A DNA stretch of 62,607 nt, filler included, from Catajapyx aquilonaris (taxonomy: Eukaryota): NCBI GenBank assembly GCA_000934665.2. It is 2 parts of 2 records of this genome, joined end to end, with 100 filler letters (N's around TTAATTAATTAA, not from the genome) between each part and the next. Parts side by side here need not be neighbours in the genome. Positions count along the whole stretch, not along the records: positions 31,368 to 62,607 come from JYFJ02004551.1; 1 more part is not named here. One strand, written 5' to 3'. Made by a program: the position numbers and the translations under genes. Shown here piece by piece: positions 35,885 through 62,607 of the stretch. Every line of letters begins with the position of its first letter. Within the stretch, counting starts at the first letter, position 1. The notes beneath the pieces were generated by a model. It searched no databases. It saw only the letters and a program-made list of their open reading frames with translations, and was not told where the DNA came from.

Positions 35885-35915
<31 letters not shown>

Positions 35916-36546: not shown

Positions 36547-36742
36547 CACCCACACCCCACCCCTGCTCATCTCAGACGACTACTGATTAACGAACCTATC
36601 CGATAGTGTCATTAATCAGTAGTGTGCATTATAGGCATATTGAAAGCAGAAAACACAAAAATTCAAAATTTCGTAATTTTCTGAACAGAGGACATATTGT
36701 GCCTCAACCTTGCGGTGCAAAACTTGCGAGTAGGAAACTTAA

Positions 36743-41237: not shown

Positions 41238-41298
41238 CGATTTAGGTGCAGCGGAGTAACCACTTCCTGGTGGACACAAATTGGCCAGGCCGTATGAT
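41238..41298 (-). CDS. MDP1: MDP1-like protein, exon 2
   Basis: cgtag|AT ... CG|gtaag, phase 1-2; DHTAWPICVHQEVVTPLHLNR aligns with MDP1 [20 protein letters not shown]. Confidence 0.85.
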
Positions 41299-41393
41299 CT
41301 ACGGGCCCAAATCCCGTCCCACATTAATAAATAACTGTTCACCACAAATAAAACAGCACATAAGAATATCAAAATTCTGTGTTCATAACTCAC

Positions 41394-41472
41394 CTAAGCT
41401 TATGATCACCAGTTGCGGCTTCTTATTGTCACAGGGATCGGAGAAACCTGCTTGCAAGTGAGCAGCCGCCAT
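41394..41472 (-). CDS. MDP1: MDP1-like protein, exon 1 (probable start)
   Basis: ATG at 41472; MAAAHLQAGFSDPCDNKKPQLVIISL G|gtgag aligns with MDP1 LPKLAVFDL-D. The four exons total 561 nt (186 aa) in one open frame. Confidence 0.8.
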
Positions 41473-42820: not shown

Positions 42821-43816
42821 AAAATAATACAGTAGGTACCCGTTTTACACCCCTCCATTTTACGCCGTTCTACATTAACGGTTTGAAAATGACATCATAA
42901 AATTTTTAAATTGAAGAATTGTGATAACGTGGAAATTATGATAGCTTGCTGGTTGTGAAGTGGCCAAGAAAGATTTCCCATGCGGGAAGTACCCGTTTTA
43001 CGCCGCTCCATTTTACGCCGTTTCGCATTAACCCCGGTTTTAAAATTACCGTACATTTGAAAATTTTGTATAAGATTAAAAAAAAAAAATGATGATAAGA
43101 CAATCTGAACATGAACGCATCACTCCAACACTTCTGAGACCAAACACACGAACGTATACCTGCTCTTCTTTCCCCTGTGTTTCCTGGTGCCTTGTGGCAG
43201 CTTCTATCGATATATGAACTGTACAGTAGGCCTACTGTATTGTTCGGTATTGTTGATCTCGGCACTCCCCGAAGTACTCCAACCGTTAATTGTTACGATA
43301 CCCTACGTGTCAAGGGGGGTAATCACTCGACTGAAAAGTGTACACTGGAGTACCAAATTCAAGGAGTACCACGGAGTAATAAAGAGTGAGGTGCCTGAGG
43401 AGTACCAGGGAGTACCACTCCCAGGTGTACACCGGAGTACCGAAGTGATTGCCCCCTTGCTACGTGCACTGCAATTATATTATTCTTGCCAACCTGCCCG
43501 TTGTTCTATTGTTTTCATTGTTGAATATGCAATGTTGAATTCATTTTAGAACATGAAGTGAGAGAGTCAGATCCATCATTTGGGCTTGTTGACAGAGAGG
43601 GTTGCTAGGCAATTGCTTAATCTGCTGAAAACCCCCCCTTAGATTCAAAAAAGTTCGGGTTTGGGACTTTTGTCGGGGGCAGTGATAGGTAAGACATGGC
43701 TGTGCGAAATTTGAGCGCTCTCCGTGCCCGGGAAGTGGCTTAATATTAGGCGTGACATACATACATTAATACATATGTACAAACTTTCTCCTTTATTAAT
43801 AGGGATATTTAATATA

Positions 43817-44378
43817 CAGGGTGTTTACGACCTAACTTTACAAACTTCTGGGGGTGATAGAGGGGACCAAGACAAACATTTTTGACATAGGAACCCGTGT
43901 CCGGAAACGCCATCTAGAGGGGGTTCATAGACAAGGAACGGGTGTGCTCAGACGCGTCACGCGAGAGGCGCAAGTCGAGCAGCCTGTTTTGTTGATAGAT
44001 GGCGCTCGGATAGTAACCAACGATGCGATGTGCCATAACGTGGCAACAGCAGAGCCATCTAGCACCTAAAGTACGCCTCCTAGGAGATGCGCGGATAGTC
44101 AACAGCGGTTCTGTTGTTGCCAGGTTATGGCGTATCGCGTTGTTGTTTACTTACAACGACGCGATACGCCATAACCTGGCAACAACTGCGCACCATCTAT
44201 CAACAAAACAGTCCGCTCGACTTGCGCCTCTCGCGTGACGCGTCTGAGCGCACCCGTTCCTCGTCTATGAACCCCCTCTAGATGGCGTTTCCGGACACGG
44301 GTTCCTATGTCAAAAATGTTTGTCTTGGTCCCCTCTATTACCCCTGGAAGTTTGTAAAGTTACGTCGTAAACACCCTG
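43817..44378. mobile_element. Mariner-type long-TIR MITE, copy 1
   Basis: TA|CAGGGTGTTTACGAC ... GTCGTAAACACCCTG|TA, with >160-nt inverted arms. Confidence 0.92.
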
Positions 44379-44389
44379 TATATATTATA

Positions 44390-44725
44390 CAGGGTGTTAT
44401 AAAAGTTGTGCACAAAGTATATAGAGGTCAGAATAGGAATCCATATCCTTCAATGTATAATCCTGAGTCAGTATGAACTTATACATTCCATACATAGGCT
44501 ACCATACCATACATGCCAATGAAATCAGTGTGTTAATAATCTTAATATTGCACAAAATTTAATAAAGAAAGAAAGATTACATGAAATTAGTGCGTGTAAG
44601 TTATTACAAGTTGTTCGAGTTGGCGACCACCGCATTCAATGCAGGTATTTTCATTGTCGAAGGAAACACTGTCATGCACTTCGCAAAGACGCCAGGAATT
44701 TCCCGGACCACGTCACTGCTGCAAG
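44390..44725 (-). mobile_element. Decayed 3' end of a Tc1/mariner transposon (transposase C-terminus plus TIR)
   Basis: Minus strand gives DVVREIPGVF...(frameshift)...TCIECGGRQLEQL, matching the CIxxxGGHFEHLL terminus of mariner-like transposases; end TA|CAGGGTGTT at 44388-44398. Confidence 0.65.
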
Positions 44726-45223: not shown

Positions 45224-46938
45224 CAGGGCCCTGCAGAGCTTGTCTGAGGCCCGGGGCAGGATCATGTTAGAGGACCCTTCTTATAATGACATAAAATGTA
45301 CAAAGTCCGTCAATGAGATGCGCCAGTAGGTAGTCAACTGATTTATTCACTTGCACAAGCACAGAACAACATGCACACCCTGGAAATGCAACCAGTGGAG
45401 ATGTGGAAAAGAGGAAAAGGGCTATAAATGCACACAAATAGGGTGTTGGGGAACCGAGCCCCTACTATTGCAATGTCATGGCTCCTCTTGCACACATAGT
45501 ATCTTAATTAATTTGGGTTTTTAATGCCCGACATGAGGCATTTACAATAATATAATTACACTATGTAACAAAAATCAAAATTTTTGTTCTTGGAAATTAA
45601 TCGCCATTTTTATGTTCCTTAGGTCACTGGTAACTCATAATGACCTATCATTCTGTCTGAATTTTGTCTTAAACATTAATTGTGGTTGTCAAAGAACCAA
45701 AGTCCTCGAAAAAATCTTGGGGTCATTCCGAATCAAGTGGGACGAAATATTGCTTGACCCTCTCGGATTTTGGTGGAACAGAAGTGCACAACCATTCCAT
45801 AATGCTAAATATCAAGTTTCATCCATATTGCTCAATACCGTGAGGAGGGATAAATTCGCGAATTTGGGAAATTGCTAAAATGAGGCCTTTTTTGGAAGAA
45901 CTTTTTCGGTTAGTGGAATTGGTCAAAACCCAGTAAACAAATGAAGTAAAAAAGACTAGAAAATGGAACTATGAAATTAACACATTCTCCTAAAAAATGT
46001 AAGCAGAAAAACGTGTGCCATTCGTTCTATATTCATCACATGCTCAGTCACATGTCCAAGAACTTGGACTCCAATAATTATTAGTGATGTGTTTGCGTAA
46101 CTTCAGTCATATTTCGTGACATGAGTTTTGACCACCATAAGCTCTAAGGTGTAAGGTTATGTTCAATTTGAAACCAGGTAAAATATGAGGGATGTTTTGC
46201 AGATTCATCACTAATTTTAGGGGGCCCAAATTATGAGATATGTGACCGATGGAATGACACACGGTTTTCTGGTTACATATTCGAGTAAAGCCAATTCTAT
46301 TGTTGCATTCTCCTCGTCTTCCTCCGTCTTTTGATGTAAGTTACGTAATTATGTTCATTGGGTTTTGACCACTTTTACTAACCAAAAACAATATTCGCCA
46401 AGGGCTCAGTTTAAGGCCTTCAAAATTTTGGCTAGGTTCCCTTTTAAACAGAACTGTACTCTATGTAGGCAAGCCCTTTTCCTTTTCCCCACATCTTGAG
46501 TGGTTGCATTTTCAGGGTGAGAGAATTAGTGAGTGTTTGGGCAAGTCTGAATGTCTGATCGAATCCTTGCATATGGAGAGGCTCCAATAGCCCCCGACTG
46601 AAACAGGGGGCCCCAAATTGGCGAATTTCTATTGGAAAAAATTGACTGGCATTTAAGAGCCGGTATTGCATTATAGGGCCCCGAGTCCCCAACCTAAATA
46701 GGGGCCCCAAATTGGCTTATTATTATTATTATTGCCAAAATTTGGGAATTATAAGTCCAGAAATGATTCGGCCCTATGTGTTAAGACGCCATTGGGATTG
46801 GGTATTTTTCCCAGTAAGTTTCTGTCGGCTGGTTAGATAAGTCCAGCCTGGGGCCCCTGGCGGGGCCCCCTGGCCGTACTGAGGCCCGGGGCAAGTGTAC
46901 CCAGCTGTCCCCCCCNCCCCCCCCTCTGCAGGGCCCTG
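45224..46938. mobile_element. Non-autonomous hAT-like element with nested fragments
   Basis: CAGGGCCCTGCAGAG ... CTCTGCAGGGCCCTG, perfect 15-nt TIR; flanks CTACGGA/CTACCGGA; GAGGCCCGGGGCA subterminal repeats. Confidence 0.75.
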
Positions 46939-47541
46939 CTACCGGAATATCCAGCTTGTCCAGGGAAGCGAGCGGTATGCTATGGGTCTGCTGTCGTAGA
47001 GGTCAGTCACCTGTCTACCCAGCCAGAGACGGCCGTACACCTGTCCCAGTTATGGAATTCTTCCTTTCGGAGAGACAAATGATGACAACTACAATAGTCC
47101 TGCTGGAAGTTACTTGAACCCACTAGACTACTTGAGCATGTATCTGCCACCAAGAGCTTGCTGCCACCTGTTAAAAAGGAAGTTGTCGTGATTGAGATTC
47201 TACTCTAACGAGGATCCCCCTTGGAGGATATATTCGGGAAATTCAAAAACGGTGAAACAAGATTTCACTGTAATACGTATGATAACCTCGCAGTATAGGA
47301 GCTAATTCTAGCAAAAGGATTGAAGAACATATATTATTGACGATATAATCTCAAATAAATACAAAGGGAAGTAAAAGATATGAGAAAATAGAATTTTGAA
47401 ACATTATTTATTACTATTCATCACGCTTTTCCCTTATGTTTTTTTTTTTGCCTTTTCATGCACATAGAAGATTTTTCGCAAAGCTCAACAATACTCATGA
47501 CAAGAAATAATACTAGAGGGCCTAATGACTCAGCTTAGAGT

Positions 47542-47699
47542 TTACCACAACTGAAAATGAAACATGACCCACAAAAATATTGCGAGAATCACCGCGAGAT
47601 AAATTCCTCCACTCATTTTGATATCTCCACGAGACCAATCTGGCATGTCAGCCAAAACCATCGTCACCTTTTGGAAGTATCCAGATGGTTCACCTGCCC
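47542..47699 (-). CDS. Uncharacterised repeat protein, terminal exon with C-terminal transmembrane segment
   Basis: ctctctttgtag|GG, phase 1, matching the donor of exon 51728; GAGEPSGYFQKVTMVLADMPDWSRGDIKMSGGIYLAVILAIFLWVMFHFQLW*; minus-strand AATAAA at 47407-47412. Confidence 0.62.
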
Positions 47700-47867
47700 C
47701 TACAAAGAGAGAATTCCTGATTAAATATAATAACTTTTATTCAACAATGTTTTTTCCTGAATATAAAAGAAAAATTACTTTACTAAGGCTAATAAAAAAA
47801 ATAAGGCAAGGTGGTGCTTTGCCTTGATTGACACCTCCAAAAATGGAGGTGGCACAGAGAAGTTATA

Positions 47868-48030
47868 CAGTGAGCCCTCCATATCCGCGGGAATTGGTTA
47901 CATTACCTTCCGCGAATACCAAAATCCTCGGATGTTCAAGTACATGGAGTAATATATGCATATAACCTAGGCACATCCTCCAATACTTTAAATCATCTAG
48001 AGACTACTTTATAATACAAGTAATACCATA
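47868..48030 (+). mobile_element. Tigger/pogo-type MITE 5' fragment (MER2-like)
   Basis: TA|CAGTGAGCCCTCCATATCCGCGGG..ATACCAAAATCCTCGGATGTTCAAGT..TGCATATAACCTAGGCACATCCTCC..ATACTTTAAATCATCT. Confidence 0.7.
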
Positions 48031-48217
48031 CATAATAATAAATAGGCTATATATTACATTTTCATCTTGGAACAGGTCAAGGCGAATTGTCCTATCCCCC
48101 TCTTAAGCCCCTGGCCACCTTGTAGATGACATGCCATCACCCCTGTTTGTTATAAAGACCATCACAAAATGAAGACCTTCTGACATGCATTGTATAATTA
48201 TGTATGTTACCGGCAAT

Positions 48218-50233
48218 CAGGGGCGGTTTTACATAGTAGCACATGTAGCACGTGCTACAGGCCCCCCGCTGATAGGGGCCCCGCGCTGATAGGGGCCCCG
48301 CGCTGATGCTATTATAAATTTGTCATAAGTATTGCAAATTATCTTTCATAGTACATTCACACAATATAATGAAGATTTATTTGCTTAAGTGCGGGATGAA
48401 GTTTAGATGGGGACAAAATGGTCTGGAAGTATAGCTGTGTGGGTTTCACAGAGACTGGGGGGTTAAATCAGTGGCGGATATACTGTACTTGGCAGGGGGG
48501 GCCCAGTCCGGGGCCCATCTCCCCCACAGGAGGTTGAAGGCGAAAATTTTGGGACATAAAACCGGCCTGGTTATCTTTCCGCGGCAGAGGGAAATCAGGT
48601 GCCTTCAATTAGGAATCCCGACTTCTGGTCGAGGCCGAGGGTCACTATGATGTACACTGTGCAAGGCAAGAAATAAGAAGTCACTGGGGTGTCGTTGGGG
48701 TTGGAGGCCAACTGGATGGCAATGTTAATGGATTTTTTGGGGTCGGGCTCTATGTAATATTGACAACCCTGTGTACATCTTGAGGGTTCACCATCCGGTA
48801 TCAAGCCTGAAAAATCTTGTAGGCCCCGTACTTCTGCACAGTGCAGAGTACACACAGGGCCACACACTTCTTGTGCAGGCACGCTACTGAACAGCAGAGC
48901 TAGGTCTGTAATTATTTTAGTGGTTACATTTACACTGGTCAATGATGATATTTTTTCAAGTGAACAATATTAGGTACGGTATTTTTTACGCATTCAGAGG
49001 CGCTATAGTGTTGCATATTACGTCAGAAAGTTTCTATCGGCAACAATCTTCTTGAAACAAACCCTATATGGCTCAATATGACCCTATGTATATTTTAAAA
49101 TTCTGCAATATTTATACTTGTAAATCCTAGTAAAGATTTTGGCAAGGATTTTGGTTCATTTACTGCCGTCACAACAGGGGCAACGTGAGCCATCCATTAA
49201 TTAAGTCTTATTATCCATTACTATTTAAAAATTAGTGTCAAATTATGAGGAATTTCAGTGTACGACTCATAACCAAGCTATGTTGTGAATAATTTACTCG
49301 GATTCCATAATGTACCCACGCAGCATAATATGTGTCAACTATTATTACCTCAATTCCTCTTGTTCTTCGTATGTCAAGAGGGATGTTATTCCTCAAGCCA
49401 GGTACAGCAGAAAATCAACATGTGAATTTTATGTCAGGATAGTGAGGATACGGCAATATATTGCATATACAGTACATATTCAGGCCTATAGTATATCAGG
49501 GGATGTTCTTTGCCACTTTAAAAAATTCCGTTTACTTAAAAACTGTGGGTTCTAGAAAATATGGGATAACATACTGTATATTTGAAACAGACGCCAAAAA
49601 AAATGATAAAAATTGATGTGTTTGCAAGTGTCTATGCTCGAAGACTGCATTGATCCTAATAACTACAGTATATTATGATGCAGGATTATTTTAGTTGGAG
49701 TGTGAATACTTCTTGTGAAGTTTTGCAAGTAAGAGTTTAAATACAGTTCAAAATTTGTACACAATTGAACTCCTGTTAAACACGCCTAAATTAATCAATT
49801 TAATTAAATATCCCTTAAATCTTCAGTATAGTTTGTGCTGTCCCATCAAGTCTAAGCTATATATGGAGATTTAGCATGCTGGGAATCATATGAAAGCTTG
49901 ATAGATAGATTTTTAAAGTTCAGGATAATACGCGTAGTTAGAAAACGTTTTCAGCAAAGTTATCCTGACAGTTACATTAAAGACGCATCGGCTGCTCAAG
50001 CAAGTCATGGACAAACATTCAAAATATCTATTGTTCTGTAAATTAAATTTAATGCAAATATGCAATATTGCCATTTATCCATTCGCATATACCTAAGGTT
50101 ACGGTCAGTCAGTCGTCATTTTTCCTGTCTGCCCAAGGGAGTTGCAAAATGCAATTATGTACGAGTGCATGGAGCCCAGGAGGCCCCACTATTAGTAGTG
50201 CTACGGGCCCCGCGGATCCTTAAACCGTCCCTG
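48218..50233. mobile_element. ~2-kb non-autonomous hAT-like element in the last intron of the repeat gene
   Basis: CAGGGGCGGTTT ... AAACCGTCCCTG; flanks CCGGCAAT/AAGGCAAT; GTGCTAC(A/G)GGCCCC subterminal motifs at both ends; 17-nt tandem repeat at ~48265-48305. Confidence 0.65.
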
Positions 50234-50643
50234 AAGGCAATGTGTGAAATGCCTGGGGTATTTAGGCAAAGTGTGAAATGTCTGTGTTATTTCATACTTT
50301 GACTAGGTATTTTATATAATGCCTTGGTATCATATAATTATACGTAGAATGCCGAAAGGCAAACCAGCATCATAGTATAGAATACTCCCGGCCACGCTCT
50401 AGGGACAAAGTTTGGGCAGCAAGCGGTGTGGTCCAATCAACCCTAGGGCATGCTGTACCAACATAACCCATAACCTAACATTCCTTCCTTGCTGATACAA
50501 ACCTATCTTCAGCAGATACCTATCCTATCCTATCCTATCCTTCAGCAGATACAAGCCTAGGAAAGTAAGAGGTAATATAGTGCGGGATCTCCTGATGTGA
50601 AAGAGTAGCCCAAACTTTCTGGAGCCTGGCTGGGAGTATTATA

Positions 50644-51215
50644 CAGGGTGTAAATGAATTCAATCGACAAACTTGTTGGGGTAATAGAGGGGACCAAGAC
50701 AAACATTTTTGACATAGGAAACCGTGTCCGGAAACGCCATCTAGAGGGGGTTCATAGACAAGGAACGGGTGCGCTCAGACGCGTCACGCGAGAGGCGCTA
50801 ATCGAGCGGACTGTTTTGTTGATAGATGACGCGCAGGTGTTGCCAGGTTATGGCGTATCGTGTCGTTGTAAGTAAACAACAACGCGATACGCCATAGTAC
50901 CTGGCAACAACAAAACCGCTGTTGACTATCCGCGCGTCTGGCACGTCTCCTAGGAGGCGGACTTTAGTTGCTAGATGGCTCTGCTGTTGCCACGTTATGG
51001 CCATCGCATCGTTGGTTACTATCCGAGCACCATCTACCAACAAAACAATCCGCTCACCTAGCACCTCTCGCGTGACGCGTCTGAGCGCACCCGTTCCTTG
51101 TCTATGAACCCCCTCTAGATGGCGTTTCCGGACACGGTTTCCTATGTCAAAAATACTTGTCTTGGTCCCCTCTACCACACCTACAAGTTTGTCGATTGAA
51201 TTCATTTACACCCTG
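50644..51215. mobile_element. Mariner-type long-TIR MITE, copy 2 (core inverted relative to copy 1, different TIR tips)
   Basis: TA|CAGGGTGTAAATGAATTCAATCGACAAAC ... GTTTGTCGATTGAATTCATTTACACCCTG|TA; body nearly identical to 43817-44378. Confidence 0.92.
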
Positions 51216-51340
51216 TATACCTTGCCGGTTTGCCCTTAGACATTATATAAAATGCCTAGGCAATGCTGTATGAAATAAGAAGCATTTCATATTATACAGT
51301 ATAATAATTATTAGCACTTATGACTCCAATTAGTATATAT

Positions 51341-51571
51341 CAGGGGTTGAATTTCAAAATTTTCTTCTAGATGCAAAGTTTGCACTCCAGACTTTAATCT
51401 GGGGTGCAAATCGCTTACTTGAAGTGCTTAACTTTTAATTACTGGTTATAGCCAGGTTTAAAAGCAGAGCCAATTGGAGTGCAAACTTTGCACTCCGAGG
51501 CTCAGTTTGGAGTGCAGATGACAATTTTGGAGTGAAAATTGCACCTTTGCATCAGAATATTTCGGCCCCTG
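51341..51571. mobile_element. Small MITE (CAGGGG ends) with internal TTTGCACTCC repeats
   Basis: CAGGGGTTGAA ... TTCGGCCCCTG. Confidence 0.55.
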
Positions 51572-51727
51572 ATATTATATGGATTACACGCATTTGATCC
51601 CTTTTTTGTATTGTGCAACTTGTAATTTAACAATAAACAGCAGGTTTTTGCATTAGTTAATAATTGTTGTCAATAACTAATAACATGGCAAGACATGTCA
51701 TTTTTACACACTATGAGAACCTCATAC

Positions 51728-51891
51728 CTTCAGTAGTTGCAGGGCTTGTTCTCCAGCTGAAATTACGGGCTTCTTTAAGTACCAGCATGGACTTCTTTCC
51801 GTCAGGGTTTACATGTGTATACACACCAGATGATGATGCCCTTGGGTCCTCTATGACGATTTTCCTGACGCTTTTCTTCAGTAGCTCATTC
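51728..51891 (-). CDS. Uncharacterised repeat protein, exon (phase 2-1)
   Basis: catgtag|G ... GAAG|gtatga; NELLKKSVRKIVIEDPRASSSGVYTHVNPDGKKSMLVLKEARNFSWRTSPATTE, open and phase-compatible with both neighbours. Confidence 0.7.
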
Positions 51892-52341
51892 CTACATGGA
51901 CATGGACAGATTATAATTATTATTGAAGAACAATATTGTTCGTCATACTTAGTTTTAGTTGTTATGGGTTGTTTGCATCATCTTAAATTACATGTGTGCA
52001 ATGCCAGAGATATCGAAATGATAATGTACATTATTAAATTTGGAAGAGGGTCGCAGAGCAATCTACTAGCCTGTTTTTGCCAGATTATTATAAGCGTTCG
52101 GAACACATCATTCAATGTTGCACGGAAATTCACCTTTCATTCATTATTTTTCCCTGGCTAACACAGGTAGGCCTAGTATATTCGGCCATCAGCACTTTAC
52201 TTCTGATGGACAATAATTTAAGTGCTAATATTAGAAGCACTTTGCACATACCGGTACATAATGATTTAAAAATTACTGTCCATCCATTCATTATTTTATA
52301 CAATCTGTGGCCCACCTGTGGTATTGTCATATAGGCTAAGT

Positions 52342-52570
52342 CAGTGGTTTCCAAACGGGGGTGTCGCGGGCAGTCGCGATCCTTGGTTCAACTTTTTTTT
52401 TTTGCAATTTCGGTGTCAATTGAACCATTTTTGCGGTGGTACAGAGTGTATATGTTTTCTGGAAGGGGGGCAGTTGTAGGGGGGCTGGGGGAGGGGGGAC
52501 AGGGGGGGGGTCGCACATTTATGAAAACATGTTTAGGGGGTCGCAGTTGGTAAAAGATTGGAAACCACTG
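52342..52570. mobile_element. hAT MITE
   Basis: CAGTGGTTTCCAA ... TTGGAAACCACTG; flanks GGCTAAGT/GGCAATGT. Confidence 0.78.
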
Positions 52571-52688
52571 GGCAATGTGGCTAATGCACATTATTATGAC
52601 ATTAACTATTGGAACACACACCCACCCAGACTTGCGCTCAATAAGCTATGGGGACGTTGAAAACTCAACTTTTCGAAGCTAATGTAAA

Positions 52689-52730
52689 CTAAACTAACCT
52701 AACCTAACCTAACCTACCCTAACTAACCTA
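52689..52730. repeat. (CCTAA)n tract, the complement of the arthropod telomeric TTAGG repeat; probably TE-borne
   Basis: CTAACCTAACCTAACCTAACCTACCCTAACTAACCTA. Confidence 0.75.
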
Positions 52731-53348
52731 GGCTGAGAGAAATAGACTTTTGTGAAACCCTGCAAATCGAAATTGTGGGGACATGTCCCCACTATAACGG
52801 TAAACGGTAATACATCAACAATCTAGCTCTAGATTGTTGATGTATTTGTATAGTGCCACGTACGACACATTTTTCCAAACGTTTTTTGATAAATAATACT
52901 CTCCTTGTCAGTATGAATATAATTATACTGTTGTCCACTATTGTGTACTAACTGGCATAATATTGTAAACAGAAGTGTTGTTACTGATGTGTATTAATAT
53001 ACAGGAAGGTACTCTACACTGCTCACGTTCCTAGTTCGAAGAGAGTGACCAGGTCAAAAAGGTACGAATTTTTACTGAAGCAATAAGTTAGAAAAGAAAA
53101 TACCAGTTGAAAGTAATAATGTACAGTAGCACTATTAATTTGTAAGTAGTAATATTCCTTTTTTTTGCAATTCAGTTGCACTGCAACGAGAAACCATTTT
53201 TCAGCTGGAAAATACCCAAAAAAGTTCGTTATTCATTGATAACAATAATAACAACTAACTTTCCGGCTCTTTTTCCATATGAAAATGTTTCCTGGCTCTG
53301 GTGCAACTAGACCTGACAAAACAAAGACGAACGTAGAACTTCTCATAC

Positions 53349-53477
53349 ATGTGAATAGTTGACTCTGTGAAGCTGGTGGATGCAATGGAGTCAGGGTCTG
53401 AGATTCCCAAACCCCTGGAGAACTTCTCACACAGCTCATCTTGTGAAGGGTCTTCTTGTTCTGAGCTGTAGTCAGTC
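53349..53477 (-). CDS. Uncharacterised repeat protein, diverged repeat exon (phase 2-2)
   Basis: ctgatactttcttgcag|G ... AT|gtatga; TDYSSEQEDPSQDELCEKFSRGLGISDPDSIASTSFTESTIH; acceptor homologous to those of the repeat exons. Confidence 0.72.
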
Positions 53478-53589
53478 CTGCAAGAAAGTATCAGAAGGAT
53501 ACTCCTACAACAATGTGGGGCAATGTGGTACTGTATATTCCAGTAATTATTAAGATTAAGAAAGACAACTATATTTTATTATTGTGGAT

Positions 53590-54259
53590 AATGGGGAACT
53601 AGCCTTGGTCTGGGATTTGGGATTTTTGTTCATAACTAGCTAGCCCATGCCTGTAAACATACATTCCATCACTCTGTTGCATCAAAATGACATTACTGGA
53701 TAAATTACGGCACATTTAAAAGTGCCTTCAAAATTGGCGGGAAAAACGCCGCTGCCAATCGAAAGGGTACACTGAAATGCCTGGTTGACTGCGAGATATG
53801 AGGAATTTGACTTTGAATTAACCGCGGACACGACGGGAAGCATTCGCAAGGCGGCTGTAGGCCATCGAGGTGGAGAAAAGGGGACCTTCATGTGCCGAAT
53901 TCGGGTGACAGATGATTCCTGCCAGTTGGCACCACTGCCAGCCCCTTAGCTGATTGAGTGGCGTGAAGTAAAAACGCGCCCCGGCCGCTATCTTGCTCAC
54001 GGAATGGGACGGTTGCTAACCACAGCGAAGCATTTTACAACAATGACGGGGCGCGTTCTACAACACCATTTTTGCGTTCATTTCACTTCGCGTGACGTCA
54101 ACATTTTCTAGGGAAACAGTGACGTCACCATTTCCCTACATAAAAACCCCAATTACTCCGGAACGGGAACTGATATCTTAAAACGGAATATGCCAAAAAA
54201 ATCCCAAAAATATGGGCGAATTTATTATGTAGTTTCCAAAATGAAGGCTAGTTCCCCAT
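53590..54259. mobile_element. Non-autonomous DNA transposon (possibly P-element-like)
   Basis: AATGGGGAACTAGCCTT ... AAGGCTAGTTCCCCATT, perfect 17-nt TIR; ATTGTGGA occurs at both junctions. Confidence 0.7.
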
Positions 54260-54484
54260 TGTGGAAGCAAACTATCATAAACTATTACTGTGCCAAAGTA
54301 TGAAACTTGAGATATCCAAGAAAATGTTACTTCAATTAAATTAATTTTTCTCCGTTAAAACGATCACATTTTTGGTGCCATTTTCTTGATTGATTATTAT
54401 CAGGACTTGACTACACTAATTCTTTGAACTGCACGATTCTGTCTTAAAGAACAAATATATATGAATACAGATAATTTTTCTTAC

Positions 54485-54604
54485 AGCCTAGAGGTCTCCT
54501 CGACATCATCGATCTGCTGGGTTGCAGGACGCCAGGTGCCCATATTTGCCCAAAACTTAGCTTCCATTTCATCATTCCAGGTAGGCAGTGTTGGAGATAT
54601 TTCT
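54485..54604 (-). CDS. Uncharacterised repeat protein, repeat exon C (120 nt, phase 2-2)
   Basis: ctgatgctttcttcag|A ... CT|gtaag; EISPTLPTWNDEMEAKFWANMGTWRPATQQIDDVEETSRL. Confidence 0.8.
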
Positions 54605-54776
54605 CTGAAGAAAGCATCAGAACAACTAAAATCAGTTTTGGGCTGAAAAAGACCTACATTTTTCCAAATAGTAGATATGGTAATCAGGACACAATCAGAG
54701 AATGGGTACAATCAGACATAATTACAGATAATAACAAAAGATAGCAACAAATAAGTTACATATGATTTTTTCTTAC

Positions 54777-54896
54777 AGCCTAGAGGTCCCCGCAACTTTG
54801 TTTGTCTTCTGGGTAGCAGGACTCAGGTTGCCCAAACTTTCCCGAAACTTTGATTCCACTTCTTCATTCCAGGCAGGCAGTCTTGGAGATATTCCC
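54777..54896 (-). CDS. Uncharacterised repeat protein, repeat exon B (120 nt, phase 2-2)
   Basis: ctgatgctttcttcag|G ... CT|gtaag; GISPRLPAWNEEVESKFRESLGNLSPATQKTNKVAGTSRL. Confidence 0.8.
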
Positions 54897-54960
54897 CTGA
54901 AGAAAGCATCAGAATAACTAAAATTAGTTTTGGGCTCTAAAAGGCCTACATTTACAAATT

Positions 54961-55868
54961 CAGGAGAACCCTGATTATCCGACTCCTCGGTTTATCTGAC
55001 CGTCCTGCTTCAGCAATAAATCTGTTTTCTCATCAAATACAGGGTGGGCGAAAAGTCCCAGGACACCTGGCTTTTTTTTGCCTGCAAAACAAATCTGTGC
55101 ATGGAAAATGTGTCGGGGATGCTGGTGTGACATATTCTGGACACTGACAGAACTGTTTGATGAGGGGAGACATCTGGGGACCCCCAACAACACCCACAGT
55201 AAGTTAACGCTGTTAACAGTGCAAGAGGGCAGATACCAGCAGGTTCACTGTGGAGGAGAGCCTCATTACGCCTCATATAGGCCTCATACGGGAAAGAATA
55301 TAACGCACATAATGCAGGATATCAGGGCTCCTTTTGGTAAGGTGTCACCGAGAAGAAGTAACTTGAACAAGTGGGAGAAAAAGCATTCAGCATGGGAAAT
55401 GTGAAAGACGGGAAGCGTGAAAGACACTTCCCTTGCTAAATGCTTTTTATGGGTGTTGTTGGGGGTCCTCAGATGTCTCCCCTAATCAAACAGTTCCGTC
55501 AGTGTCCAGAAGATGTTACACCAGCATTTCTGACACATTTTCCATGCACAGATTTGTTTTGCAGGCAAAAAAAAGCCAGGTGTCCTGGGACTTTTCGCCC
55601 ACCCTGTACTATCATGCAGGCCTACTACCCATTAGTTTTGTATTGCCTTAGTTAAATTTATTATAAAATACAGTACAACAGCAGTGTGTATGTAAAAGAC
55701 AAATACTTCATTATTTCTCAGAAAACTATAATATTGTACATTATTAATTTTCGTGTTTTTATGTTTTTGTTGCGTTTCATGCAAGCTTTCTTTGCTCCTT
55801 GGATTATCCGACCTTTTCGGTTATCCGATGATGCCCCAGTCCCGTGAGTGACGGATAGGGTTCTACTG
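54961..55868. mobile_element. pogo/Tigger-type MITE hosting a nested mariner-type MITE
   Basis: CAGGAGAACCCT ... AGGGTTCTACTG|TA with TTATCCGA repeats; interrupts the duplicated intron at a TA (compare the empty site CAAATAGTAG at ~54665). Confidence 0.7.
55040..55606. mobile_element. Mariner-type long-TIR MITE
   Basis: TA|CAGGGTGGGCGAAAAGTCCCAGGACACCTGGC ... GCCAGGTGTCCTGGGACTTTTCGCCCACCCTG|TA, ~155-nt arms. Confidence 0.9.
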
Positions 55869-55957
55869 TAGTAAATAGGGTAATCAGGACACAATCAGAG
55901 AATGGGTACAATCAGACGAAATTACTGATAATAACAATACAGATGGTTTTTTCTTAC

Positions 55958-56080
55958 AACCTAGAGGTCCCCTTAACATTCTTCTTGGTAGCTGGATGCA
56001 GGATCCCCATACTCTCCCAAAACTTGGCGTCCACTTCATCATTTTGGGGAGGCAGTCTTGGAGATCCGTGAAGGAGTCCT
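55958..56080 (-). CDS. Uncharacterised repeat protein, repeat exon A (123 nt, phase 2-2)
   Basis: ctgatgctttcttcag|A ... TT|gtaag; GLLHGSPRLPPQNDEVDAKFWESMGILHPATKKNVKGTSRL; indels relative to exons B/C are multiples of 3. Confidence 0.8.
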
Positions 56081-56292
56081 CTGAAGAAAGCATCAGAATA
56101 ACTAAAATCAGTTTTGGGCTTTAACAGTTTCTGCTGACATGAAAAACCTCAAAAACTGTCACTAACTCATTTCCACTAACGGTTAAACTTTGGTAATTTT
56201 TGCCTTGTTGGATTCTTCAGAACTTGGCTGTACTGTCTTTTTAAATAGCATGATTCAGTATTACATAAAGAACAAAAAAAATCATGCCATAC

Positions 56293-56390
56293 CCTGGCAT
56301 TGTGGTGGATGATTTGGGAGTTGGAAGTGTCCTTGCCACACTCTCCCAAAACTTCATAGGCAGCTGTCCATCGGATGTTTGTGCTTCCTC
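56293..56390 (-). CDS. Uncharacterised repeat protein, exon (phase 0-2) with a partial repeat
   Basis: atattag|GAG ... GG|gtatgg; EEAQTSDGQLPMKFWESVARTLPTPKSSTTMPG shares KFWES with exon A. Confidence 0.7.
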
Positions 56391-57772
56391 CTAATATATT
56401 ATGAAGAAAAATGTAATTTTAGAATTTGTAATTGTACAGCCAATGGCTGCCTCATGCTGTTAATTTATTATTAGAGAACGGATTTCTAGGTTTTTACCTA
56501 CTTTTTCTTTTGTGGGCAGAACACCAGAACCAAAATATCTATCCGTTTCATAACACAAGGACCTCAAAAATCGTAGTTTTATAGAACCTAAAAATGCCTA
56601 TTTCGGGTGTTGGGACCTAAATGGCCTATTAGCACCTATTAGTGCCTATTTCGACCTTTTTCACGCCATTCGGTAAGATTTTCGAGAGTTCGACTGGATT
56701 ACCTTTCAATCTGTGGCATGCCGATAAAAGCAGTGTTGATCATATTTCTAAAAATTCACTTCTGGTGGCTATACTAGAATGGGAGTGTAAGTACGAGAGT
56801 GCAAGGTTTTGTCTGTATTTTACCTGCAAAAAGTGCTTAACGTTTGACCTGAAAAATTAAGGAAAAAATATTTACTCATCTTTCCCATTAAAGTCAGGAA
56901 TACTGTACCTGCTGCACGTAAATCACTTTTAAAATAAAATGCGCCTTCCCCTCCAAATCCCAATTTTGAGGACTATGCTGCAGTCAACATGGTGGCACAT
57001 GAATGTTACGGTATTGTCACTGCACTTTTCAATCCCCTTCTGCCCTTTGAACTAACCTATGGTCAACCCCAGCAACACTATCACTGATCTCTCTACGCCA
57101 GCGCCAGCAGGAAAGATGCGCTTGAAAAACATGTACCGTACTGCAACTATCTTGGTTTTAGAAGACCTTGTGATGTTATACCATAAACACATACTGCAAT
57201 GTTCTGATAATAAAGTGCACCACTGCACTGCAGAGGAAAATAAAAAGAATGTTTACTGGTGCTATATGGACTAATTTCGTAATCATAAGCCTCAGATCAG
57301 TAGCAACATAAAAATATTTTAAACATTTGAAAGTGTTTGTGTTTATTTTATTGGGAATATCAGTAATTTTAAAGAGAGGGAGAAAGTCACGAAAATTACC
57401 CCACTTTATACCAGCCAGCTGATACCCCTGGGGTATATACCGGCCTCACGGTCGAGCTCATTTTATACCGGCATGCCATAGATTGCAGGATTATACATGG
57501 TATAAAGGCAGGGCACTCCTTGCTATTGTTGTGTGCATTTTCATAGCATTTATGACGTACGAGTTCGTATAAGTTATATCTTGGACGGACACTAAGCATC
57601 CACAACTGAGGCCACAACAATGAAGTGCATTCTCGGAAGGGCAGAGATGGAGAACAAGAGCTACAAAGCTTTAGCAACAATTTTTCTCTCTCCCCACTCT
57701 GCAGCTAAGCATTGTTTCATGATTAAAGGTTAATCCAAGATAAGGGGTTGATATATATAATATTAGGGCCTA

Positions 57773-58079
57773 CTAGATGCGGCACCCGGCATTGCCCGGG
57801 AAGAAATGCATGAAGGGAAAACACCTGCCAGTAGCCTGCAGTAGCCCCGTGAACTGTCTGTCTTTGTGTGTGTCCGCCCACCAATTCCATCTGTCTCTAA
57901 CACCTTCACCCTCTCCCGCCTGAATAACGGCAACCGTCATTTGCCTCCCATCTGTCGGCAACTCCCAACACGTCCCTCTTCCGTCCTGGGGGTGGAACAC
58001 AGGTGGCAGGCAGATGACGATTGGCAGGCGGACAGACGGAAAGAGACGACAGACTCACAAACGGCTTTATTTATATAGA
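57773..58079 (-). mobile_element. Non-autonomous Helitron family A, copy 2
   Basis: Same termini and body as 6814-7113; AT target. Confidence 0.88.
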
Positions 58080-58413
58080 TCATATGATTAATCAAGTGTC
58101 CTGGATTTACTATCGATCATGCAACCACCTCTTTATATGAGAGGGAGCACCAAACTCAGTAAACAAATGGCTCGATTCTGCCCGTTATGAATGATTGACA
58201 AAAACTTACTGGCATTTAATAACTAGATCAATGTCAATCCAGATTTGTTTTCACTCACTTGTCAGTATGGTGCTCTCTACCCGTAGTTTATAATCCAGAC
58301 CATAGTCAAATGACCATGGTTGTATACAGGTACGTAGGTAGGCCTACATCTCACTTAATACACTATAAAAATGTGGAAAGAATAAACATAAAGGGATATC
58401 ACAATGTACTTAC

Positions 58414-58480
58414 TTCTTCTAGTTCAACATGTACCGGTACTACGTCCGAGAAGTGGCTTTCTGTAACTGCCCCAGGAATT
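58414..58480 (-). CDS. Uncharacterised repeat protein, upstream exon (phase 2-0)
   Basis: catcaacag|A ... GAA|gtaagt; IPGAVTESHFSDVVPVHVELEE joins the 56390 exon in frame. Confidence 0.55.
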
Positions 58481-58683
58481 CTGTTGATGTAAATGAACAG
58501 AATTGATGAGGAAATACTTTGCTGTATGTATAGAAATCTAAGACTACCAACCATTTTAAAAAAACTACCGTAGATCTATCTTTCTTCAAATGATAACCAC
58601 CCTGGCTCATGCACATACATTTAAAAATTCACATCTACACTTTGAAAGTCAGATGAGCCTTCACAATCAGGACATTACATATA

Positions 58684-59107
58684 CAAGGTGTATCTGAACT
58701 CAGTGCCCCGACGTATATGACTGCCTTCCTAGCCACCAGAGGATCGATTTAAGTATAGGAGTCATATGTCTGGGCAGCCTCATTACGGAGATAATTGGCC
58801 GCAAACATGTAGTACAAAATATCCTGTCGGTTAGGCCACCCATCGAACCCTCCCCCAGTCAGAAGGCTCTGGAAGGTCTGGGGGCGGGACTTTGTTGGTT
58901 TGTTGCCCACAGGTGGTAAGGCCTCTTTGGCTAGTTACACCAGAAAATTTTATTTAAAAGTCAGAAGGAGCGATTAGGCAAAAATCGCTAAAGAGTGTAT
59001 CTCAGTAATGAGGCTGCCCAGACATAGGACTCCTATACTTAAATCGATCCTCTGGTGGCTAGGAAGGCAGTGATATACGTCGGGGCACTGAGTTCAGATA
59101 CACCCTG
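58684..59107. mobile_element. Mariner-type MITE with ~105-nt TIRs
   Basis: TA|CAAGGTGTATCTGAACTCAGTGCCCCGACG ... CGTCGGGGCACTGAGTTCAGATACACCCTG|TA. Confidence 0.9.
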
Positions 59108-60495
59108 TATATGCAAAATGGGCACATTCAGAGGTCAAACTGAAGGGAAATCGGGCAGATCACAAAACTCATACATTGCAACATTGGTCCTATATGTTCA
59201 GGCTAAAAAAACCAGCATTGGATTTTAATCCTTCTGCTAGTGCGCAGTACAGCTGTCAGCAAAACCCATGAGACTGGCAGAAGCAGGCTGCTAGCAGAGA
59301 CTTAGCAGGATGAAGGCATACTTCACTCTTCAATTCTTCTCCAAGGCTATAGCCCGGCCTTCACAATAATATATTTTAAAAGATCCAGTTTTCACACATT
59401 GCCAATGTGGAAGCCAGTGCATCAATGATGACTACGTAAGACAAACCTTCAGGTTGCACATCCTGAGGTGAATCAGTTCCTGCACCTGCACAATGCTCTT
59501 TGCCCATACCTAATTATTATCTGCTTTGACAGCTCAACAATCCTGAATATGTCTAATTTTATATTCTGGGCAAAGCCCATCCAAAAGATTCAAAAATGTG
59601 AAAATCACATTGTCTTCCCATAACAAGGTGAATGTATGATTTGTGCAGTTATAAACATAGCCACATAATATTCCGAGATACATGCAGATAGGCTGGGAAC
59701 TCAGATATTATTGTTATAAATTCTTATATAGGAAAATACGCAAACCCATGTTGAATGTTTTTATACTGCAATCCTTTCACTTATAGTACATGCCTGGTAG
59801 TTATTTGGTGTTACTCCCAGGTATAGTGTCACATATTATATAAGTTAACTCCTGATGTAGCATAACTGCAATCTTATTTTTAGGTGTCCCCACAACCATG
59901 TTTCTTTATTATACATAATCACTGACTACATTAATTTCCATTCATACAACCAGGCTAGAGTCTTTGAAACTCTTCTCCGTAGTGGATATTGAGTACAAGA
60001 AATCTGGAACAAAGTGGTACATTTGTTACGCCTGAACGAAAGTCACAGAAGCAGCCTTGTCAGTGAAACTTTATGACAAAAACCCAGCCAATAATATTCT
60101 TGCCCATATCTAAGAAGATTTTGTTCCACAGCATCTCAAAGTCTTCCACACTAGTCACATACAACACCGTCCTGATTGAAGATCTGGTTTTAGCTTCAGC
60201 ATATAGCTAGACTTCTATTAATTTGAGTCTTTTTGTATTAGAATATTGCAAGGAACTACAAGTCCTAGAGGAATTGTGCAGTTTTAGGAGAACTCTGTAT
60301 AAATGACATTTTGCTTAAAACATGCTTCATTTCTTACTACATGTTTTTTTCTTAGAGAAATGTGATAATGATGATCGATGATGATGGTTTTAAGTAATGT
60401 GTGATTTACAGTCTTCAGAGCCTGCCTGCATTAATTTCATCTAATGGAATCACTCTCTTATGTAAGCAACCTAAATATGTATACTGCAGACTTAC

Positions 60496-60561
60496 CTTTC
60501 ATTGCATGGGTTCCTACCATTGCTGAATGTCTGGTCATCTGGGCGCTTAATTCCAAAACGC
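60496..60561 (-). CDS. Candidate 66-nt exon of the repeat gene (frame unresolved)
   Basis: Strong sites aattttgcag| ... AAAG|gtaagt; two frames open (RFGIKRPDDQTFSNGRNPCNE or VLELSAQMTRHSAMVGTHAMK). Confidence 0.4.
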
Positions 60562-61084
60562 CTGCAAAATTCAGCAGACAGCTTCTCTGGTGGTGTTTCA
60601 GGCCTTGACTAATTGTTAAGAAAAAAAGTAATTTCAAAACACTCATACTAATCGAGGCCATGTGGTGATTGTAAGGTGAACTCATCAATAAATTACTATT
60701 TATTGCTGGAATGCCATAATATTTCAGTTTATCTGTCTCCTCTGCCTCCGACATAGAGTCATGTCAATATTATTAGTCAGCAGTGCCAGCAGGTCACCTT
60801 GACATGGTTGATGACAAGTGTGGATTGCCATAAATATGTCTAAAGTTGGTACATGTTTAGGATTGTACCACCATCGCACAACCTCAGCAGTAATGTTGTC
60901 ATGCTCACTGATGGCCATGCCACTCCCATCAAGTTCAACAGCATTCAAATACCACGTATAATAATTCAACTACAATGCTGAGGTAGAGAATGCTTTCACG
61001 TCATAATATATTTTGAGGGTGGTGATAATATCCAGATGGTGGGCAGAACTACATTGGCTCAGGGGCATAATCAATTATCAAATA

Positions 61085-61270
61085 CAGTAGACTCCAGATA
61101 TAACAGACTTCAAGGGACAGAAGAAATCAGTCTACTATAAACATACTGAGGTCTGTTATAATAGCCAAATACACAGCCCATTTATTTAAGTATATGGCCT
61201 TTCAAGTCTGCTATAACTTATAACTGAGAATCTGTTATAGCCTATAGGCTCTTATATCCGGATTCAACTG
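61085..61270. mobile_element. TA-flanked MITE, sister of 7117-7278
   Basis: TA|CAGTAGACTCCAGATATAAC ... TTATATCCGGATTCAACTG|TA. Confidence 0.78.
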
Positions 61271-62165
61271 TATATTATATGCTAGTATAATAATGGTATA
61301 CGGTACAGTATATCCCATGTGGATGGCGAGGGTTGTTATACCACTCCTTTCCACCTTGTCACAATCTCAGTTGCCTTATGGGGTCTACACATGGTCTGCT
61401 TTAGCACTAGTTTTAGTTTTAGTATTAAAGATCCTCCAATCAGAGGGGGCCTTATCCCCACCCTTTGTTCCTCAGTGCCCAGGGCAGATTATTATTAGTG
61501 GATCCTTGACAAGACTAAAATCAGTGCTAAAACAACTCTTGCAGACCCCTTTATAAGTACGAAAACTAAGAATTTAGTCCTCTTGATGGGGACTCTCTAT
61601 TAGACAGTTTTCATTGCATTGCATAGTAATATGGAAATATTAACAGTAGGGTGTCAAGCTCAATACCAAGAAATTAAATAATGGATTGTAAAATTGCCAA
61701 CTCACTGCCCGGCAGAGTGACCTACCCACTGTGTGACTGCACCATGCGACCATGAAATTACTTAAATTTAATTAAATTAATTACCGGTACTTTATCTCTG
61801 TATATAGTTTGATAGCCTAGAGCCATACAACCTGAAGTCCTCAGGTTCGGTGAAAGAAGTCAGAGTACGTCAACAACACAGTGTAAGATTTTTTTTCTAG
61901 CTACTGGAAGACTTCTTTCTCAACTCCCTTGCCTGTCCCAAAGTCAGTTAAAACTTAAAAGTACTAACTTACAACTGTATAATGAACTTCCAAGCTAAGC
62001 ATTCACATAATTATATGTAAGGTAATAATAATGTTGGAGCTTATTGTTCAAAAAGATAATTTATTATCATATAACTCTAAGCCACATGTTTCATGTAAAA
62101 ACCACGTTCTCTACTGATGTCCTACAAAAAAACAAGGTTTTCCAGTATCTGCTAGATGAACTTAC

Positions 62166-62183
62166 CTGTCTTCGCCTTGGCAT
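62166..62183 (-). CDS. Candidate start of the repeat gene (MPRRRQ) within exon 62166-62207
   Basis: ctgtacag| ... ACAATGCCAAGGCGAAGACAG|gtaagt: consensus donor, A at -3 of the ATG; link to downstream exons not resolved. Confidence 0.35.
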
Positions 62184-62489
62184 TGTGGGACCTTCAGTTA
62201 TTCTAAACTGTACAGGTGAATGTACTCTGTCTATATAAATATTAAACAAGGCTCTATGGAAACGGAACTATCAACAATGCCTTTACATAAATAATTTCCC
62301 ATCTTGAATTCTGTGAGTGCAAATATGACAATAATCTAATTTTCTATTTTTTATAGCTGGAAATATATAGTATGTGTCTAAAATACATTTTCTAAGGCTG
62401 GGTTGCACCAAGACACTGGCTCCCAGAAAATTTGTCTGGCCGACAAAGATCAGGCTTACTTTGTTATTCATTGTTGACACCATGGTTGA

Positions 62490-62607
62490 CAACAACAACA
62501 ACAACAACATCATCACGACATTTCCCTATGAGGGGTAGTCAGCGATGAAGGGAGACGCAAGCTAACCCAACAATGAACTAATAAAACTCATGAGAATAAA
62601 CCTAAAA
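62490..62607 (-). mobile_element. 3' end of a non-LTR retroelement, sister of 36434-36546, cut by the window end
   Basis: (CAA)n plus a shared ~100-nt sequence. Confidence 0.65.

Follow-up and report, generated by a model that had tools for sequence, protein, structure and literature searches.

The 62,607-nt window, i.e. the whole stretch of Catajapyx aquilonaris DNA analysed here, carries on its minus strand a gene model that runs from Met to stop over 369 amino acids and ten exons. The eight exons that make up its 3′ portion are those of the initial annotation; 8/8 are preceded by AG, and the 7/7 internal ones are then followed by GT. Joined, they amount to 979 nt in a single stop-free frame that ends at the proposed stop codon, in agreement with the one open frame described earlier. 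That annotation had left the 5′ exons open, and two coding exons (62166–62207 and 60496–60608) are now placed upstream of the earlier eight, up to an ATG at 62183. Because an acceptor precedes exon 62166–62207, with the contig end at 62607, a further upstream exon is nevertheless likely. The initial annotation had overlooked the first two coding exons, a sixth repeat, a paralog candidate, and a likeness to LEM helix 1.

Gene organization on the minus strand

Exon 1 (62166–62207) contributes six codons from the ATG at 62183, including an Arg triplet, and ends in a phase-0 GTAAGT donor. Exon 2 (60496–60608; phase 0-2) contains repeat 1 (core, 60534–60590) and a motif in common with the paralog candidate, whereas exon 3 (58414–58480; phase 2-0) is an acidic spacer without a repeat. 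Repeat 2 (core, 56316–56372) lies on exon 4 (56293–56390; phase 0-2). Exons 5 (55958–56080), 6 (54777–54896), and 7 (54485–54604), all of phase 2-2, are recent triplicates that carry repeats 3, 4, and 5, respectively, and exon 8 (53349–53477; phase 2-2) carries repeat 6 (core, 53387–53443), which resembles helix 1 plus the loop of the MAN1 LEM domain. Exon 9 (51728–51891; phase 2-1) is non-repetitive and was modelled as three strands with low confidence (pLDDT 58.5). The coding part of exon 10 (47542–47699) contains a hydrophobic segment (47554–47604) and the stop codon (47542–47544). A polyadenylation signal, AATAAA (47407–47412), is the sole A(A/T)TAAA within 46900–47541 and starts, at 47412, 130 nt past the stop codon; the hydrophobic protein end followed by AATAAA reported earlier was thus found again. 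An uncertain candidate for the further upstream exon, predicted from the sequence only, lies at 62460–62513 and contains in-frame ATGs at 62513, 62510, 62483, and 62471. In-frame splicing from its GTAAG donor at 62459 would add 12–26 residues, and in the longest form these include a run of six Leu residues encoded by a (TTG)n microsatellite.

With its splicing and start predicted, this looks like a real, well-formed ten-exon animal gene. In the full model, 9/9 donors read GTAAG or GTATG; of all 939 minus-strand GT dinucleotides within 47000–62607, 32 do so. The GC content is higher than that of both 50-nt flanks in all 10 exons (barely so in one), and the codon-position bias (chi2 23.7) was equalled by only 24 of 1,000 stop-free intron controls. 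Similar hydrophobic ends occur in 2 of 282 other stop-to-stop frames (≥40 aa, 40000–62607). A second hydrophobic-ended frame (57423–57572) was discarded because it lies on the opposite strand within an intron. ORF-based annotation would miss this gene.

The exon-encoded repeat and its duplication

The repeat is an undescribed exon-encoded unit, caught at three ages of duplication. Six copies of this 20-residue unit, each on its own exon, are set in linkers rich in Ser, Pro, Thr, and Glu, and follow the pattern of a hydrophobic residue at position 0, Phe at +4, mostly Gly at +9, and Pro at +13, in which only the Phe and the Pro nine residues later are invariant. The motif previously assigned to five exons fits exons 5, 6, and 7 well and two more loosely, and the number of copies rises to six with that in 60496–60608. 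When the profile of the triplicates was applied in register, its score was reached by 0, 0, and 8 of 3,000 shuffles for exons 4, 8, and 2, respectively (background p 0.001–0.005), whereas exons 3, 9, and 10 gave no match to it (p 0.32–0.70). When the window was searched blind by profile, the older repeats stood out weakly (E 0.63 for exon 4 and 1.5 for exon 8), and exon 2 was unlisted. Exons 4 and 5 share 73% DNA identity over 41 nt. Structure prediction of repeat 3 gave one helix (residues 14–24, local pLDDT about 80), and the hydrophobic moments of the repeats range from 0.22 to 0.70. A reading of the repeats as LIR motifs was rejected, as the canonical core is present in just one of the six.

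The triplicated block, which comprises the exon and its intron flanks, occupies 54475–56127 on the minus strand, with a 292-nt period between the last two copies and an inverted-repeat insertion (55038–55608) in the first spacer. The triplicate exons diverge by 20–23%, compared with 5–12% in the intron flanks. Both indels among the exons (9 and 6 nt) keep the frame, whereas those in the introns are 1, 11, and 19 nt in length. Purifying selection on the protein is not evident among the triplicates, with pN (0.16–0.20) about equal to pS (0.12–0.31), and positive selection is likewise not supported because divergence at synonymous sites is as high as at non-synonymous ones. The expansion of Olduvai/NBPF-type repeats is a comparable case of rapidly evolving duplicated exons. 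Rapidly evolving duplicated exons, as described in PMC3906575, are similar in that here too the duplicated exons diverge more than their flanking introns, but they have no sequence relation to the present ones, and here three copies lie inside one small gene.

Relatives and likeness to LEM domains

The initial annotation recognised no family, and searches of proteins, families, the Atlas, and structures likewise brought up no relative. Searches against proteins, which rely on shared 5-residue words and are weak for 40-aa queries, yielded 767 candidates for the repeat alignment (none at E up to 10), 35 for the N-terminal alignment, and 2 for residues 1–60 of the paralog candidate, with no match in the latter two. 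All three matches of the profile among 1.84 billion representatives were dismissed as sums of 1–7 bit pieces in unrelated repeat proteins. The Atlas returned no usable match to exon 9 or to residues 1–45 of the paralog candidate, and PHROGs returned 0/7. The best matches in PDB by sequence were at E 0.16 (RipA), 1.3, and 1.3, in a search in which a true LEM domain of this genome reached only E 0.17–0.3 against emerin and LAP2. In fold searches, the exon 9 model gave a best Z of 3.4 and no Foldseek match at E 0.001, and the repeat model gave no match at Z 2. A metagenome pattern scan produced 41 loci, all unrelated or non-coding; a bacterial protein resembling repeat 1 is presumably Mfd, a likeness that chance explains in so large a collection. 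No Pfam match below E 0.02 was obtained for the nine exon peptides, and the matches to TEA (exon 6, E 0.19) and GmrSD (E 0.02) did not pass the cut-off. There is no transposase domain match, nor are there many genomic copies. Exon queries in the genome itself (G000) hit this locus alone or, at chance level, one place more, and 23 extra DNA matches are confined to query positions 211–281, which are intron sequence. Three further matches in this genome (L016, L072, and L073) were rejected as relatives: L072 has no N-terminal motif in the surrounding 30 kb, and L016 is a parvin-like N-terminus. A literature search listed no publication on such a protein.

The same genome contains a distant, two-exon paralog candidate (G000:C430) that has the N-terminal repeat in common and a C-terminal membrane helix, separated by a low-complexity Gln/His-rich middle. 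It begins with Met-Arg-Arg-Arg directly ahead of the common motif (cf. the Arg triplet of exon 1) and has no signal peptide at this Met. The link is borderline on its own (E 0.30 and 0.24), and the tail charge of +3 points to another membrane. The spliced paralog candidate comprises 280 aa and neighbours DZIP1, whereas the present gene neighbours MDP-1-like and RCHY1-like genes.

The repeats may, tentatively, derive from the MAN1-type LEM of this lineage as degenerate versions of its helix 1 and loop, which would make the protein a derived emerin-like inner-nuclear-membrane tether whose canonical BAF binding has probably been lost or changed. Repeat 6 and the MAN1 LEM encoded in this genome (L080) agree in 14 of 29 aligned columns and score 50, as compared with 51–62 for true LEM–LEM pairs. 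This score was reached by 0 of 20,000 shuffles, 0 of 20,000 real-protein windows, and 0 of 3,000 369-aa windows, and by 14 of 20,000 when shuffling preserved the helix-Gly-Pro skeleton. In addition, the triplicate profile fits L080 in a fixed register (p about 0.0004). The idea was formed by eye, so that all of these p-values are post hoc, and of the 24 segment-by-LEM comparisons only this one scored 50, followed by one at 28. The Pfam LEM model (PF03020) matches 0/6 repeats and 0/1 paralog exon, whereas positive controls gave E 6e-14 to 6e-7 and a true 26-aa half LEM gave E 5.9e-7. Nor is the gene one of the six LEM matches that this genome yields at E up to 10, and profile–profile comparisons gave E 0.16 and 0.12.

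The spacing of Leu, a hydrophobic residue at +4, and Pro at +13 is that of LEM helix 1 plus the loop, and the invariant Pro, in register in 6/6 repeats, aligns with emerin Pro25, a BAF contact according to PMC6212729. The Gly of the repeat, however, sits one position further on than its LEM counterpart. The same paper places the BAF interface on the second LEM helix, with Leu33, Tyr34, Lys36, and Lys37; the Leu33 position is hydrophobic in 4/6 repeats and the Tyr34 position in 0/6, and one helix with no second was predicted in the repeat 3 model. A complex prediction for repeat 6 with the BAF of this genome (BAF entered as two exon halves, no alignment used) gave a score of 0.00 without a verdict and carries no weight here. 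The overall layout is as in emerin and otefin and, more generally, in emerin/otefin/LAP2-type LEM proteins as portrayed in PMC6212729 and PMC10353892, i.e. one or more short N-terminal helical modules, a long disordered Ser/Thr/Pro-rich body, and one C-terminal membrane helix. These proteins differ in having one copy of the module instead of six, the Gly unshifted, and both the second helix and the Tyr34 contact, and the genome already holds separate canonical LEM genes, namely an emerin-like, a MAN1, and a third one. With no Pfam LEM match to any repeat and without the second LEM helix, the gene was not filed as LEM.

Slightly more speculative is the proposal of a two-member lineage-restricted family in which helix 1 plus the loop of the MAN1 LEM was taken, the second helix was dropped, and the half-domain was multiplied sixfold by exon duplication on an emerin-like tether. 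The newest copies would then be diversifying faster than the introns, a pattern that conflict with selfish DNA or a virus would be expected to produce in a nuclear-envelope tether. A literature search turned up no protein with several half-LEM copies; if the LEM link is true, a new nuclear-envelope adaptor would have arisen by halving and multiplying the LEM module.

Predicted membrane anchor, topology, and function

The hydrophobic C-terminal segment has a KD value of 2.24 over 19 aa, compared with a best value of 0.38 elsewhere in the model, and a GRAVY of 2.05–2.8. The tail behind it consists of at most five residues with a charge of 0 and no Pro. If acceptor 47699 is used, the protein has a single hydrophobic segment at most about 30 residues from its C-terminus, as is usual for tail-anchored proteins. 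No signal peptide is predicted from the ATG at 62183, 62471, or 62483; a Leu run is present from 62513/62510 of the candidate upstream exon. The model contains only three Cys residues and one good sequon. KASH proteins have a C-terminal membrane helix, a variable cytosolic body, and a lumenal tail of ~30 residues that ends in PPPx; the present protein resembles them in the first two features and differs in its short tail without Pro or a PPPx end. According to PMC5450235, high hydrophobicity and a low tail charge favour the ER in mammalian cells, although these mammalian rules may not carry over here. The tail-anchored ER proteins treated there are similar in their single hydrophobic C-terminal segment, short uncharged tail, and lack of a signal peptide (here from ATG 62183), but the present protein has no catalytic or known interaction domain, and its presumed cytosolic part is the undescribed exon-encoded repeat.

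Judged from the sequence, this fast-evolving, lineage-restricted gene could well encode a ~369-aa scaffold, tail-anchored in the ER/nuclear envelope, that docks through short amphipathic helices. Of the lineage-specific, tail-anchored cytosolic repeat array proposed earlier, the lineage restriction, tandem exon duplication, short helical repeats, and C-terminal membrane segment are supported, but its tail-anchored and cytosolic nature is inferred and requires that acceptor 47699 be in use and that no signal peptide be supplied by an upstream exon, for which a candidate exists. The anchor would be inserted post-translationally into the ER or nuclear envelope, leaving a mostly disordered body toward the cytosol or nucleoplasm. 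Each unit would fold into a single Gly-capped amphipathic helix, and since every unit would dock on the same kind of partner surface, the array would act as a multivalent membrane tether whose valency may have grown via duplicated symmetric phase-2 exons. Duplication at three ages would make this a clean case of a membrane tether gaining valency. Our leading guess places the partner on the chromatin side of the nuclear envelope, since the layout is like that of emerin, the basic N-terminus carries a Thr-Pro site, and the repeats have a likeness to LEM.

GPI-anchored proteins combine an N-terminal signal peptide with an omega site, a spacer, and a hydrophobic end. It is improbable that the present one is a surface or GPI-anchored protein with a signal peptide from the upstream exon, the repeats outside, and the C-terminal stretch as the GPI signal. 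The GTAAG donor at 62459 does join in frame, with the furthest ATG adding the six-Leu run, omega-like sites lie at 338, 340, and 347, and an omega-like Ser-x-Gly 30 residues before the end is followed by a polar spacer and a tail-less hydrophobic end. The Leu run, however, is a (TTG)n microsatellite, the ATG in the best context (62483) brings no hydrophobic stretch, Cys and sequons are scarce, and the paralog candidate has a charged tail behind its helix and Gln/His-rich low complexity.

A little less probable again is that there is no single six-repeat protein, with the main product lacking the anchor through an upstream last-intron acceptor or exons 5–8 being cassette or mutually exclusive exons. 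Competing AGs upstream in the last intron bring stop codons within a few residues and would give a product of 319–349 aa without the C-terminal anchor; for those at 47756–47788 on the minus strand, an exon start at 47788 or 47756 ends the protein at 321–323 aa. The pyrimidine tracts of these two AGs (15 and 12 of 17, vs. 11 of 17 at 47699) are as good or better. Against this, 47699 is the only one of the three candidate acceptors with a branch-like YTRAY site in the usual range (22 nt upstream), and the GC content climbs there from 22 to 44%. Exons 5–8 are all of phase 2-2, and the triplicate flanks are more conserved than the exons, as expected if splicing elements were kept, but introns of 172–1,061 nt permit the inclusion of all three triplicates.

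Very unlikely, finally, is a decaying or unexpressed gene whose frame and splice sites persist only because function was lost recently: pN is about equal to pS among the triplicates, no relatives were found, and a 120-nt exon is still stop-free in 44–51% of simulations with 20–25 random changes, but 369 codons extend over ten exons without a stop or frameshift, and the strong donors (9/9), frame-keeping indels, and poly(A) signal are intact.

Exon structure and repeat units

The gene under study lies on the minus strand, and the eight exons of the initial annotation (exons 3-10: 58414-58480, 56293-56390, 55958-56080, 54777-54896, 54485-54604, 53349-53477, 51728-51891, and 47542-47699) were all recovered, with AG before and GT after, in a single stop-free frame to 47542. 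The 5' exons, previously left unresolved, are now partly in place: two more coding exons, 62166-62207 (exon 1, ATG at 62183) and 60496-60608 (exon 2), join in phase, giving a model of 1110 nt from Met to stop (369 aa). Exon 1 is preceded by an acceptor, a candidate exon further upstream, with its end at 62460, would lengthen the protein by 12-26 residues, and the contig ends where the window does. The splicing is predicted from sequence: donors are GTAAG or GTATG in 9 of 9 cases (background, 32 of the region's 939 GT dinucleotides), GC content is above that of both flanks in 10 of 10 exons (barely in one), and a codon-position bias as strong as that of the model occurs in 24 of 1000 control stretches of stop-free intron. 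The AATAAA described after the stop is indeed found, 130 nt downstream. This is an orphan gene, real and well formed, carrying an undescribed repeat.

Six related units, repeats 1-6, are borne by exons 2, 4, 5, 6, 7, and 8, respectively. Exons 5-7 arose through recent triplication of one exon together with its flanks. Given the exon boundaries, the triplicate profile matches exons 4, 8, and 2 in register, with 0, 0, and 8 of 3000 shuffles, respectively, reaching the score (background p 0.001-0.005); exons 3, 9, and 10 gave no match in the same conditional test. The older copies rest on this boundary-conditional test because the signal dropped markedly when the window was searched blind with the profile: exon 4 reached E 0.63 and exon 8 reached E 1.5, whereas exon 2 was absent from the list. 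The unit comprises a hydrophobic residue, Phe at +4, Gly (mostly) at +9, and Pro at +13, and AlphaFold models a single helix for the exon 5 copy, at residues 14-24.

Pairwise differences among the triplicate exons number 23/114, 26/114, and 27/120 sites, against 10/125, 3/57, and 9/74 in their flanks (Fisher p 0.008, 0.004, and 0.09), a contrast biased by flanks that were trimmed to where the alignment holds and that contain splice signals. One published account (PMC3906575) provides a precedent for duplicated exons changing more than introns. Exonic indels (9 and 6 nt) keep the frame, whereas intronic ones (1, 11, and 19 nt) do not. The protein copies may drift or diversify; pN (0.16-0.20) is similar to pS (0.12-0.31), which does not demonstrate selection.

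Predicted C-terminal anchor and comparison with LEM proteins

The last 20 residues form the only hydrophobic segment (GRAVY 2.05-2.8; tail charge 0). The tail anchor proposed initially would be this segment, which is present only with acceptor 47699. In mammalian cells, such hydrophobicity with an uncharged tail favours the ER, according to one report (PMC5450235). The predicted plan is tail-anchored and emerin-like. We consider it an even chance that the anchor would be inserted post-translationally into the ER or nuclear envelope, with a disordered body facing the cytosol or nucleoplasm and the repeat helices folding on binding to act jointly as a multivalent tether.

The predicted layout of a short helical module, disordered body, and C-terminal helix resembles that of emerin and otefin (PMC6212729, PMC10353892). 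Six LEM matches were found in this genome, three above the cut-off: a MAN1 gene (MSC domain; L080), an emerin-like gene, in which a phase-1 intron interrupts the LEM, and a third gene (L081 and L082/L089 for the latter two genes); none lies at the window gene or at the paralog candidate described below. The genome also carries a BAF gene of two exons with a 71-nt intron (L087:1498-1838). Repeat 6 aligns with the MAN1 LEM at 14/29 identities and a score of 50, near the 51-62 of LEM-LEM pairs, and the remaining 23 of 24 segment-by-LEM comparisons score 28 or less. This score was reached by 0 of 20,000 shuffles, 0 of 20,000 protein windows, and 0 of 3000 full-length windows. Harder controls reached it 14 times in 20,000 shuffles that kept the skeleton, and 21 times in 2000 at the DNA level. 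The triplicate in register gave p about 0.0004 against the MAN1 LEM and 0.02-0.06 against the other two. All of these control values, for repeat 6 and for the triplicate, are post hoc because the idea was picked by eye. LEM membership was rejected, since Pfam LEM (PF03020) matched 0 repeats, though it detects a genuine half LEM at E 5.9e-7, profile-profile comparison gave E 0.12-0.16, the Gly position is shifted, and the second helix is missing (Tyr34 position hydrophobic in 0 of 6 repeats). In emerin, a large share of the BAF interface (Gly24-Lys37) falls on that helix (PMC6212729). Descent of the repeats from a LEM half is less likely than not, and the same holds for the more specific form of the tether, a LEM-derived chromatin tether.

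The C-terminal end also fits a GPI signal, which matters only if a signal peptide comes from an upstream exon; a GPI-anchored or surface protein appears unlikely. Slightly less probable still is a main product that is anchor-less or alternatively spliced: AGs at 47788 and 47756, either of which would end the protein without the anchor, have pyrimidine tracts equal to or better than that of 47699, but a YTRAY site is in range for 47699 only. A decaying gene is very improbable.

Paralog candidate and wider searches

With exon 2 as query, one other place was found in this genome, C430:70043-70117 (E 0.30; reciprocal E 0.24), a match that would be borderline taken alone (across six frames, an estimated E of about 4). 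It lies nine residues after a Met-Arg-Arg-Arg start, just as its counterpart in the window gene does; starts of this type occur twice in 125,210 window positions. The match opens a 168-codon exon rich in Gln, Pro, and His, followed by a 200-nt intron with a branch site and an exon whose end encodes a membrane helix and a tail of charge +3, for a predicted total of 280 aa; these supporting features (start, exon layout, and helix) were spotted after the fact. Pattern searches from both motifs matched only these two places, and a sister gene of the same plan is likely at this locus (two exons, minus strand, L018:557-1599).

The candidate and a DZIP1 gene are arranged head to head. The stop of the candidate is only ~80 nt ahead of the ATG of the next same-strand gene, which we take to be COMMD2-like and whose fragments had no Pfam match. 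No AATAAA was seen in this interval, and the transcript is possibly bicistronic or overlapping.

Searches of protein, Pfam, Atlas, PDB/fold, metagenome-pattern, and PHROGs collections found no relatives of the window gene. Three matches of a large-scale profile search were artefacts, and ~13/21 identities between repeat 1 and a bacterial protein, presumably Mfd (L029, L034, L037, L040, L049, L057, and L065), are attributable to chance given the collection size. The proposed lineage specificity is consistent with these results in a narrower sense: 'lineage-restricted' here means that no relatives were detected in these collections and, among animal genomes, in this one, by searches that are weak for exon-level queries of ~40 residues.

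Neighbouring genes and repeated elements

On the plus strand lie a Smad MH1 exon at 20880-21734 (E 3e-20), presumably of the inhibitory Smad6/7 type, and, at 31951-32289, the last exon (zinc_ribbon_6, Pfam) of a gene that we take to be RCHY1/Pirh2-like. Downstream of the window gene, a minus-strand acid phosphatase gene at 35421-41470, presumably MDP-1-like (weak Acid_PPase match), is regarded as separate because it apparently has its own first exon near 41470. It also appears to contain multiple sets of phosphatase-like exons (35421-35936 and 39215-39532).

The intervals 50640-51219, 55038-55608, and 58675-59116 are each occupied by a non-coding element bounded by long terminal inverted repeats (119-189 nt, 93-96%; ends CAGGGTG-like), and a further element at about 43800-44400 closely matches the first. 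Elsewhere in the genome, tandem exon sets that we take to be C-type-lectin-like (L091:973-5900, contig C237) lie directly downstream of the MAN1 gene.
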